A DNA stretch of 48,588 nt, from NCBI GenBank assembly GCA_964610875.1, contig CAZSWP010000031.1, positions 1-48,588 on the forward strand, given 5' to 3'. Both the position numbers and the translations under genes were made by a program. Below, one piece after another: positions 3,617 to 33,282 of the stretch. Every line of letters begins with the position of its first letter. Within the stretch, counting starts at the first letter, position 1. The notes under the pieces are model-generated. The model was not told the DNA's origin. It saw only the letters and a list, made by a program, of their open reading frames with translations, and did no database searches. This DNA is from an uncultured archaeon. Its GTDB lineage: Archaea; Asgardarchaeota; Thorarchaeia; Thorarchaeales; Thorarchaeaceae.

Positions 3617-5137
3617 TTGGCTATATCCGAAGAAGTGACCAGTGAAAATATATCTGAAACAGAAACAGGATCTATTGGACTAATTTCCGCTATTATAGAT
3701 GGCATCATAAAAAAGCTGAGCAGTGCAGAATTTCAAAAGACTGTTGTTGTAACAATGGGTTCTATTATATTGGCGATTTTGATAGGCACATTGGTCATGA
3801 TAATGGCCGGTTATAATGCAGGATTGGCTTGGATTGCTTTGATACAGGGTGCAGTCATTAGGTTTGACCGAGTACTTTTTTATGCAACTCCTCTGATATT
3901 CACAGGACTATCAGTAGCATTAGCATTCAGATGTGGACTATTTAATATCGGTCCTGAAGGTCAATTATTCATTGGAGCAATGGCTGCAGCTGTTGTTGGT
4001 TTCTCTGTATCGTTACCATTTGTAGTTCATCCAATCGCAGCCCTAGGTTTTGCAGCGCTTCTCGGAGGTCTCTGGGGATTTGTACCAGGTCTGTTGAAAG
4101 CATATCGTGGTGCTCATGAAGTAGTTACTACTATGATGTTAAGCTATACAGCAATTATACTCACACACTGGCTTGTTGAGGGTCCACTTCTCGAACCCGG
4201 AAATGAATATGTTTTAGAAACTCCAGATATTTTCCTATCTGCAGAGCTGCCAAAACTCTATGGTTCGTTTTTAAGTTGGGCATTCATAATTGCTGTTATT
4301 GCTGTTGTCGTGATTGATTTCCTGATCAACAGGACTGTTCTTGGCTATGAATTGCGTGCAGTAGGTATGAATAAGGAAGCTGCTGAAACTGCTGGAATTA
4401 ACTCTAAGAGAAATATTGCCTTGTCTCTTGGAATTGCCGGTGCACTTGCTGGAATGGGTGGTGCCGGTGAGATTCTAGGCTATCACCATAGGTTTGTTGA
4501 TGGATTCTCATCGGGGCTAGGATGGGATGGAATCACAGTTGCTGTACTTGGAGCAAATAATCCTTGGGGTGTGCTTGCTGGAGCAATTTTCTTCGGAGCT
4601 CTACGAGCAGGAGGTAATCAGATGCAGACATTAACCAATGTTCCTCTAGAAATGATCAGTGTAATTCAAGGTCTTATCGTTGTTTTAGTTGCAGCACCTA
4701 GAATTATTGATTGGTTGATTGACAAAGGATATGAAGAAGTTAGATGGGTAAAGGAGGTTCCGAAGGAAGGAACTCCACACTTCTTAACACTGGGAGTAAC
4801 ACTGGTGACTTCTGTGATTGGTTTTTCTTCAATTACTCCCTATATTAACAGAGGCGATTCCAACATCTTTTGGCTTTATGCAGGAGGATTGGTGGCAATT
4901 GGGGGGGTTCTGGGAATTACCGCTTTTGTATTAATGCTGACTAGAAGTGAAACTGGATTAGCTTTGGCCTTGGTGACAGCTACTTTCTGGTTTGGACTTG
5001 CGTTCATTGGTGTGCTTCTACCTAATAATGGTATCATACTCTATGGAGTTCTGCTTGGAGCAATTCAAGCTGTATTCGCACTCGTTTCAATATTGATTGC
5101 TAGAAGTATCTTGGAAATTAACGGAGGGATGAACTAA
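3617..5137 (+). CDS. Nucleoside ABC transporter permease (NupB-like) with extra C-terminal TM segment
   Basis: GLFNIGPEGQ, AHEVVTTMML, GYELRAVG.N..AA..AGI and GWDGITVAVLG motifs; TTG start. Confidence 0.9.
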   Translation: MAISEEVTSENISETETGSIGLISAIIDGIIKKLSSAEFQKTVVVTMGSIILAILIGTLVMIMAGYNAGLAWIALIQGAVIRFDRVLFYATPLIFTGLSVALAFRCGLFNIGPEGQLFIGAMAAAVVGFSVSLPFVVHPIAALGFAALLGGLWGFVPGLLKAYRGAHEVVTTMMLSYTAIILTHWLVEGPLLEPGNEYVLETPDIFLSAELPKLYGSFLSWAFIIAVIAVVVIDFLINRTVLGYELRAVGMNKEAAETAGINSKRNIALSLGIAGALAGMGGAGEILGYHHRFVDGFSSGLGWDGITVAVLGANNPWGVLAGAIFFGALRAGGNQMQTLTNVPLEMISVIQGLIVVLVAAPRIIDWLIDKGYEEVRWVKEVPKEGTPHFLTLGVTLVTSVIGFSSITPYINRGDSNIFWLYAGGLVAIGGVLGITAFVLMLTRSETGLALALVTATFWFGLAFIGVLLPNNGIILYGVLLGAIQAVFALVSILIARSILEINGGMN

Positions 5138-31477: not shown

Positions 31478-33282
31478 ATGCAAGATCTAGTTATGCAGAA
31501 CTTGGAGATCGCTTTCAAAATAATTGGTGGACTTGCAATTTTCATGTTTGCCATAACAATGCTAAGGGAAACACTTGGTAAGTTATCTGGTGCTAGTGTT
31601 GCTAAATTACTAGAAAAAGTGAGCAATAATCCTGTGAAGGGAATGGGCGCGGGAACAGCTGCTACATTCATGACACAAAGCTCAAGCATAACAGTTCTGA
31701 CTCTGATTGGCTTTGTTAATGCGGGTATGATGACTTTCAGACAATCTGTTAATGTCATGCTCGGATCTGAAATTGGTACAACAATAACTGCACAATTAGT
31801 TGCTTTTGATGTCGGATATCTTTACTGGCCTCTACTAGCAATTGGTTTCTTCGGAATGCTGTTTTCACGCAATGAGAAGATGAAACTCACAAGTACGATA
31901 ATTTTCAGTCTTGGTTTGATTTTTCTTGGTATGGAGTTCATGAAAGAAGGGTCGCGAACAGATACTAATAATCAGGACAAACCTTGACATTATTGTGTAG
32001 GTGCTTATATAGGACCGGTAAGGATATTTTAGTGAGGGTGTCTTGACACACGATCTTACCCTCGCAAAGCCAGTCCCAGTACCGTTGTCTGGGAGGACAA
32101 AGCTTTGGTGTCCAGATTTGTCCAACTTACAATGAACGGTCTAGACCACTTGGTCAAAGCGAATTCTTTGTCAGTATGATAAACTCTTATGGTGAATTTC
32201 CAATCATTGGTATCCTGATAGGAGCGGCAATTGCAGGAATTACTCAGAGCAGTTCAGCTACAACAAGTTTGGTTATAGCAATGGGAAGTGCCGGAGTTAT
32301 TCGATTAGATTCTGGAATTGCGCTGATCATGGGTGCCAATATTGGGACTTGTTTCTTAGAATTAATTGCTGGATTTGGTGCTACTACTCCTGCTAAGCGT
32401 ACTGCAATAGCCCAGACTATCATTAACATTGTTGGAGTAGCAATATTTTATCCATTCATTGGTCCATTTTCGGATTTAGTTGCTACTACGGCTACAGACT
32501 TGCCCAGGCAAATAGCAAATGCTCATACAATCTTTAATGTTCTAGTAAGCCTCATGTTCATTCCACTCGTAGGACTTCTTGTTAGATTTTGTGAATGGTT
32601 AATACCTGACAAGGAAGGTGAAGTAATTGGTCGACATTTCTTTGATGACCAAATGCTAAACATGCCACAGGTAGCAATGTTGGAGGCAGAGAAGGAGATT
32701 CTGCGAACTGCAGATATTACAATTGAAATGATCCAGAAAGCACAAGAAGCACTACTCCAAGGTTCAAAAGATGCAATACAGTGTATCATGAATTTGGAAG
32801 ATGAAGTAGATGATAGGTGCCGAGAATCAGAACGGTTTATCGATCTCATAAAAGAGGAAGAGCTGAGTGAGAGTGACAAGGTCTGGCGGATGAAACTATT
32901 AGCCATAATTACTGATATTGAAAGAGTTGGAGACTTGACTCAAAATATTGCCGAATATGCTCAGGAAATGGCAAATGGAATCTCTTTCTCTGAAGAAGCT
33001 AACACCCAAATGGCATCTATGTTTGACATTGTTGAAAAGACATATGCAAAGTCCATAAAGGCACTAAAAACTAGAAATAAGGAGATGGCTAAACAAGCAG
33101 AACAAATGGAAGATAAGGTTGACGAGATGGAACGAAAGCTTAGAACTTCACATAAAGTTAGAATGGGACAGGGTTTATGCCAGCCTGAAGCTGACACAAT
33201 TTTCGTTGAAACACTCCGCAATCTTGAAAGAATAGGAGACCATGCCGATAATATTGCCTTCGATGTCATAATGGATTATTAA
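31478..33282 (+). pseudogene. Na+/phosphate cotransporter (NptA/YjbB family with C-terminal PhoU domains), interrupted by a 188-bp insertion; either a pseudogene or an intron-containing gene
   Basis: The N-half (31478-31953) has TQSSS and GSEIGTTITAQL. The C-half has TQSSSATT, GANIGT, QIANAHTIFN and ERIGDHADNIA. Removing 188 bp fuses the halves in frame: ...MEFMKEG-SRPLGQSEFFVSMINSY... Confidence 0.88.
31954..32141. mobile_element. 188-bp structured non-coding insertion (MITE-like or intron-like) flanked by a GGTC direct repeat
   Basis: GGTC at 31950-31953 and 32138-32141. Subterminal imperfect 18-bp inverted repeat at 31975-31992 / 32106-32123. Several internal stems; no transposase ORF. 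Confidence 0.75.

Follow-up and report, generated by a model that had tools for sequence, protein, structure and literature searches.

Does the insert that splits a sodium/phosphate cotransporter gene in this Thorarchaeaceae genome behave as an mRNA intron, or is it a mobile element that has disrupted its host gene? The window, a stretch of 48,588 nucleotides analyzed at its full length, contains at positions 31478–33282 a Na/Pi cotransporter gene (nptA) with PhoU domains, recognized by Pfam and broken by 188 bp of foreign DNA. The original prediction weighed a spliced intron against a non-autonomous miniature element. Our analysis favors, with a probability of roughly 80%, a non-autonomous IS607-family mini-transposon that recently inserted in nptA and provides a guide RNA for TnpB in trans. 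The two parts of this reading differ in strength: the assignment to IS607 mini-elements is nearly certain, and the prediction that the element supplies a working guide is likely.

Interruption of the nptA gene

Removal of 188 bp (31950–32137, or any equivalent register up to 31954–32141) restores, as had been proposed, a single open frame of 539 residues that reads M-K-E-G-S-R-P-L at the joint. Both halves match Na_Pi_cotrans (Pfam), and the spacing across the joint, said to fit the family, is identical in 13 aligned orthologues. Unbroken nptA orthologues of 534–595 aa are present in 17 other genomes; the broken gene is the sole copy found in this one. Its two parts are as follows.

31478–31951, + strand: nptA 5′ part, running into the element and ending at a stop at 31985–87 (169 aa)
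32140–33282, + strand: nptA 3′ part, containing Na_Pi_cotrans repeat 2 and two PhoU domains, otherwise intact

The insert, with its stop at 31985–87, probably inactivates nptA, and it is possible that a promoter within the element drives read-through into the 3′ half. The gene adjoins an intact-looking pstSCAB-phoU cluster (gene names by inspection) and is followed immediately 3′ by an N4/N6 DNA methylase gene (PF01555; 33341–34177 of the window). Two tandem small GTPase genes (23963–25406 of the window) with Rab/Ras-like motifs, identified by inspection, adjoin the pst operon. Tandem small GTPase genes of the Rab/Ras-like kind are typical of Asgard archaea.

A dispersed family with a fixed target site

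BLAST searches of this genome and its relatives place the insert in a dispersed family, with near-identical and diverged copies on many contigs of the same genome. There are 40 full-length copies of 177–217 bp that fall into several subfamilies, about 52 right ends, and a dozen left ends located at contig breaks. An identical copy of the 188-bp insert at C9:34322–34513 indicates that this subfamily is recent. Related DNA occurs in 25 of 37 Thorarchaeaceae genomes versus 0 of 24 others, and an RNA model of the family finds matches in 10 of 17 further family genomes and in none of 103 genomes from elsewhere in the phylum. Named records that carry the family's right end are Thorarchaeota MAGs.

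The empty sites reconstructed from the 40 full-length copies share a W-G-GG-T target logo with no further conservation: G occupies position −1 in all 40 copies and GG follows in 38, and 51 of the 52 right ends are directly followed by GGT. A few copies carry C for T after the right-hand GG, or A for G before the left-hand GG, exceptions that place the crossover at GG and define the element as 31952–32139. The GGTC repeat at the junctions had been read as a 4-bp target duplication. Only GGT is constant there, the fourth base being T in 26 cases, A in 15, G in 6, and C in 4; because this base varies after right ends, the C of GGTC is a chance match. The exact frame on removal and the variable fourth base show that a target-site duplication is absent. 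The subterminal repeats are short, with GACA pairs at the left end and TGTC pairs at the right, and do not form true terminal inverted repeats. The proposed miniature element was therefore right in kind, without the duplication and terminal repeats ascribed to it. A classical DDE-type MITE is rejected by the absence of these same two features.

Confidently coding DNA is the site of only 6 of the 40 copies, compared with 229 of 400 random WGGGT sites (Fisher p = 2e-7), a depletion that would be expected if genic insertions are harmful. Three of the six genic copies lie in sense orientation and three in antisense. One antisense copy splits an Fpg/MutM glycosylase gene at C12:48437–49432 (L143), whose halves match consecutive Pfam domains.

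These properties bear on whether the interruption is real. Misplacement of a repeat in nptA during assembly would be favored by the high copy number of the element and by the many contigs that end at it. We nevertheless regard such an artefact as very improbable: the flanks are two halves of one gene and join again with single-base precision, the site follows the W-G-GG-T rule, and read depth (25–35 in the element versus 3–5 in its flanks; runs X1 and X2) fits a real multi-copy family. Among the pieces listed in Logan contigs of three DNA runs, none bridges a junction and none carries the empty-site joint.

Mini-elements also host another transposon. At C2:158416–159104 joined to C15:76657–77757, a 217-bp mini-element is interrupted in its right end by an IS110 element. 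The right flank recurs at C61:13139–13561, beside a second, deleted IS110 copy, and this IS110 appears to target the mini-element. An IS110 origin of the family was rejected, as both IS110 copies that are joined to a right end of the family lie inserted in mini-elements.

An autonomous IS607 element with matching ends

IS607 elements are defined by a GG target, dissimilar ends, short motifs in phase, and the lack of a target duplication (PMC6188088). The same genome contains, at C18:16147–24729, an 8.6-kb IS607 element whose ends match those of the mini-element, and whose order is left end, tnpA, a 1844-aa antisense cargo gene, and a 735-aa TnpB (PF07282) running into the right end. A second IS607 element begins near C18:60599 and leaves the contig. 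The C18 tnpA genes score 175 bits (that of the 8.6-kb element) and 183 bits against the NCBIfam IS607 model NF033518, above its cut-off of 110 bits. Left ends of the mini-element type precede tnpA in many relatives, and large TnpBs with D-E-D motifs and a right end of this type are widespread. The D-E-D motifs (catalytic triad) are intact in the C18 TnpB and kept in most of the 28 full-length homologues read.

The cargo ORF (C18:16822–22353, equivalent to L032:1323–6854; minus strand, 1844 aa) shares 39% identity with the cargo of the second IS607 element and 27–29% with ORFs near other TnpBs (C78, C3, C37). The 1844-aa protein has no Pfam match and is absent from the results of a Cas1 family search. 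The TnpB loci of C3, C37, C25, and C16 (L023–L027) form a separate set of about 570–625 aa, followed by a GTTCACTCA-like motif. A motif of this type after TnpB has been described for Asgard Cas1-associated TnpB elements (PMC10691335). Assignment of the parent to Aloposons (PMC8813620) was rejected because Aloposons have a different gene set and integrate at tRNA sites, and an IS200/IS605 PATE was rejected because no Y1 TnpA was found in the genome.

Aligned with its copies and the parent, the insert is divided into these parts, several of which overlap.

31948–31952, + strand: left junction A-G-GG-T, comprising host W-G, the GG crossover core, and the element's first T; predicted TAM/target in the empty allele (40-copy target logo)
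31952–32139, + strand: whole 188-bp IS607-type mini-transposon, from T at 31952 to the terminal GG
31952–31990, + strand: left end with T-N6-CAG and a pair of GACA motifs at 10-bp spacing (31975–79, 31985–89), laid out as upstream of autonomous tnpA
31997–32034, + strand: predicted archaeal promoter with a purine-rich BRE-like box, TATA at 32005–10, conserved A at −10 (32024), T-G initiator, and predicted +1 at 32034; homologous to the parent tnpB promoter
32034–32063, + strand: P1 hairpin, 32034–39 with 32058–63; its 5′ arm resembles the tnpB leader/Shine-Dalgarno
32045–49 with 32108–12, + strand: pseudoknot A, formed by the P1 loop GACAC
32065–32107, + strand: P2 helix, 32065–69 with 32103–07; strongest covariation; not found in the parent omega RNA
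32075–32093, + strand: nexus hairpin, 32075–79 with 32089–93; common with the autonomous omega RNA
32081–86 with 32135–40, + strand: pseudoknot B, nexus loop with the terminal bases; common with the autonomous omega RNA
32095–32139, + strand: P4 helix (32095–99 with 32119–23) and right end
32095–32139, + strand: right end, with TGTCC motifs (32109–13, 32119–23) and a conserved terminal 11-mer that ends in the GG core
32141–32160, + strand: predicted guide, the host nptA sequence after GGT, placed from the 5′ self-targeting guide of tnpB and PMC10711439

Promoter and fold of the predicted RNA

The alignment comprises 35 distinct copies, drawn from 17 genomes in 10 genera. The TATA box, the A at −10, and the T-G initiator are conserved, and the spacer that they enclose is fixed in length and free to vary in sequence; the distance from TATA to P1 is 29 nt in 26 of the 35 copies and 27–30 nt in all of them. 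The tnpB genes of the parents are preceded by a promoter of identical layout. As a host reference, tRNA promoters have TTAWA-like boxes 29–38 nt upstream in 12 of 16 cases; TATA positions relative to ATG show no peak in the host.

Downstream of the promoter, 82 nt into the insert, begins the structured part. An unguided stem scan of an alignment made from sequence alone recovered P2, pseudoknot A, the nexus hairpin, P4, and pseudoknot B; with P1 added, the six helices are 93% paired and contain 70 two-sided changes versus 23.8 in shuffles and 14–22 in slid controls, counts that are not probabilities because the copies are related to one another. When most paired columns are excluded from tree building, about 17 coupled changes are seen in six pairs. 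Pseudoknot B is 98% paired and invariant within mini-elements, which could partly reflect DNA-level conservation of the end; it covaries in the parent loci L161, L163, and L171. The nexus, P4, and pseudoknot B are common to the mini-element and the parent's 3′ RNA, and a model built from mini-elements alone matches the 3′ end of 26 of 28 TnpB loci. The stem scan found neither P1, P2, nor pseudoknot A in the parent's omega RNA, and gave no support to a hairpin in the parent's tnpB coding end as a P1 homologue. The promoter-like cassette and covarying fold together predict that the interior is an RNA gene. Two variant mini-elements, L207 (G019) and L208 (G010), keep the TATA box and nexus with a different or absent P1, suggesting independent origins or a remodelled 5′ part.

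The stems named in the original prediction are all present as sequences and differ in standing, conservation and covariation being limited to some. GAGGGT/ACCCTC, AAAG/CTTT, and CCCAG/CTGGG are conserved and covary; GGACCGG/CCAGTCC and ACCT/AGGT do not belong to the conserved set. The supposed outer stem consists of the inverted GACA/TGTC end motifs common with the parent transposon, and the predicted RNA would begin only downstream of its left arm. The insert as a whole folds only modestly better than shuffles (z = −2.18). The suspicion of selection at the RNA level is supported, with the RNA now best read as a TnpB guide scaffold and not a ribozyme.

On this evidence, the reading in which nptA stays functional because the insert is removed from its mRNA, as a mini-IStron or as a small intron spliced by itself or by an enzyme, is largely refuted and retains a very low probability. 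The clean frame restoration, the real RNA-level covariation, and the sense orientation at this locus would each suit such an intron, and IS607 elements with group I introns exist (10.1101/2023.11.20.567912). Scarless restoration is, however, also the outcome of IS607 insertion; gene-splitting copies show both orientations in equal number, coding DNA contains far fewer copies than random sites would predict, and the structure starts well inside the insert, behind a promoter. An Rfam scan of the insert and seven parent loci returned no intron or ribozyme match, and no group I core (P3–P7) is conserved in the alignment. As for group II, no register gives GUGYG ends, and the AGC triad on which the likeness had partly been based is not conserved, most copies having GGAG there. 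There is likewise no BHB motif: the flanks of the 40 copies show no conserved pairing and are unconstrained beyond W-G-GG-T. The self- or trans-spliced intron of the original prediction is not supported. An HDV-like ribozyme was rejected by inspection, as the helix order differs.

Predicted guide boundary and TnpB self-targeting

At the 5′ end of tnpB, a nexus-like hairpin and a terminal motif occur once more, in effect a second omega-RNA-like scaffold. In 18 of 26 parents, the bases after this scaffold agree at 10 or more of 14 nt, mostly 12–14, with a stretch immediately 5′ of the TATA box of that tnpB gene itself, against a shuffled mean of 8.7, and the self-target lies after TGGT or a near variant. 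The C18 example of this 5′ scaffold and guide is at 22497–22640 (L145), and 17 others are found among TnpB loci L146–L174. This arrangement suggests RNA-guided autoregulation of tnpB and supports RNA guidance in this TnpB family. The match after a TGGT-like motif implies that guides begin after GGT and that the TAM ends in GGT, which would explain the invariant T after the core. For the insert, the predicted guide (32141–32160) would correspond to the empty nptA allele; elsewhere the genome has no perfect site of GGT plus a 12-nt seed.

Four TnpB loci from different genomes (L153 at 3692–3710, L154, L161, and L168) have a common guide after the right end that resembles the 5′ end of tRNA-Lys(CTT). 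A tRNA-Lys(CTT) gene lies 40–110 nt downstream of these loci on the opposite strand (ARAGORN for L153 and L161), and the GG core is altered in some of them. They are possibly immobilised TnpBs with a conserved target.

Could the RNA of the mini-element be something other than a cutting guide? It might titrate TnpB in the role of a decoy or regulator; alternatively, transposition or stability might be what the promoter and fold serve. P1, P2, and pseudoknot A, which covary in mini-elements and were not found in the parent, leave room for such a role, and the short guide that the TnpB family already uses at its own promoter makes non-cutting functions plausible. However, the nexus, P4, the terminal pseudoknot, and the guide position are exactly as in the parent, and in the G010 variant the promoter lies right before the nexus, without P1, pointing to the scaffold as the selected core. 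We therefore consider a non-guide RNA unlikely and retain the guide RNA as the preferred reading.

Proposed mechanism and origin

For the IS607 mini-transposon, we propose that the serine TnpA, supplied in trans, would bind the GACA/TGTC motifs, excise a circle, and integrate it at GG without duplication. Starting at 32034 in this copy, each copy would be transcribed over about 107 nt and then for about 20 nt more into the host DNA downstream, the latter stretch serving as guide. The large TnpB would load this RNA in trans and cut the empty allele (GGT followed by the guide), and repair from a filled copy would keep or spread the insertion. Cutting of empty alleles by TnpB, with repair restoring the insertion, has been shown for other TnpB elements (10.1101/2023.03.14.532601). 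As the mini-element RNA has three helices beyond the parent omega RNA, its compatibility with TnpB is assumed.

Two deletions in the parent could have produced the mini-element. One would have taken tnpA and the cargo; the other would have removed tnpB between the nexus-like hairpins at the two ends of the gene, fusing promoter and leader to the right end, a route suggested by the way these hairpins bracket tnpB. P1, P2, and pseudoknot A may have evolved later, once the coding constraint was gone. Far more speculatively, the mini-elements might parasitize the large Thorarchaeota TnpB through guide RNAs made from their own promoters: the reinforced omega RNA of ~50 copies would outcompete parent guides, drive against insertion-free alleles, and divert TnpB from the parent's promoter-targeting guide, linking TnpB expression to copy number in a feedback; we rate this as doubtful.

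Our analysis removes a candidate Asgard mRNA intron and offers in its place a natural example of an IS607 mini-transposon that keeps a predicted guide-RNA cassette under RNA-level selection in at least ten genera. It further predicts, for an archaeal TnpB of unusually large size, a scaffold of about 107 nt and a TAM that ends in GGT, and suggests that mini-elements knock out Thorarchaeota host genes such as nptA and fpg.

Comparison with known systems

Archaeal BHB mRNA introns, such as that of cbf5, and group I/II introns resemble the mini-element solely in being structured inserts that interrupt genes. The mini-element differs from them in lacking a BHB motif, a catalytic core, and splice-site rules, in occurring in both orientations, and in avoiding genes.

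With the IS607 family (H. pylori IS607, M. tuberculosis IS1535; PMC6188088), the mini-element and its parent share the GG crossover core, the (G)GG target without duplication, the serine TnpA, the unlike termini, and imperfect subterminal inverted repeats made of short motifs about 10 bp apart. The mini-element is distinguished by the lack of genes and the invariant T after the core, and the parent by its 8.6-kb size, the 1844-aa antisense cargo gene, and the 735-aa TnpB.

The RNA resembles the omega/reRNAs of IS607 TnpBs (ISXfa1, PMC10711439; CboIStron, 10.1101/2023.11.20.567912) in having a right-end scaffold that ends in CGG, a loop that pairs with the last scaffold bases, a flanking base incorporated in the scaffold, and a G-rich TAM that matches the transposase target; the loop-to-terminus pseudoknot is required for IS607 TnpB (PMC10711439). 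Unlike these RNAs, it is predicted to have its own promoter rather than a tnpB mRNA source, adds P1, P2, and pseudoknot A, and is not accompanied by a group I intron. In the literature searched, we found no description of an Asgard IS607 mini-element that has captured a promoter and gained helices.

Gene-less elements with omega RNAs have been published for IS200/IS605 (10.1101/2023.03.14.532601; PMC10691335). IS200/IS605 PATEs and stand-alone omega RNAs are likewise gene-less mobile derivatives that keep an omega RNA for use in trans. PATEs are Y1/ssDNA elements with terminal hairpins, whereas the mini-element described here would be their serine-recombinase counterpart, found in Asgard archaea and equipped with a captured tnpB promoter.
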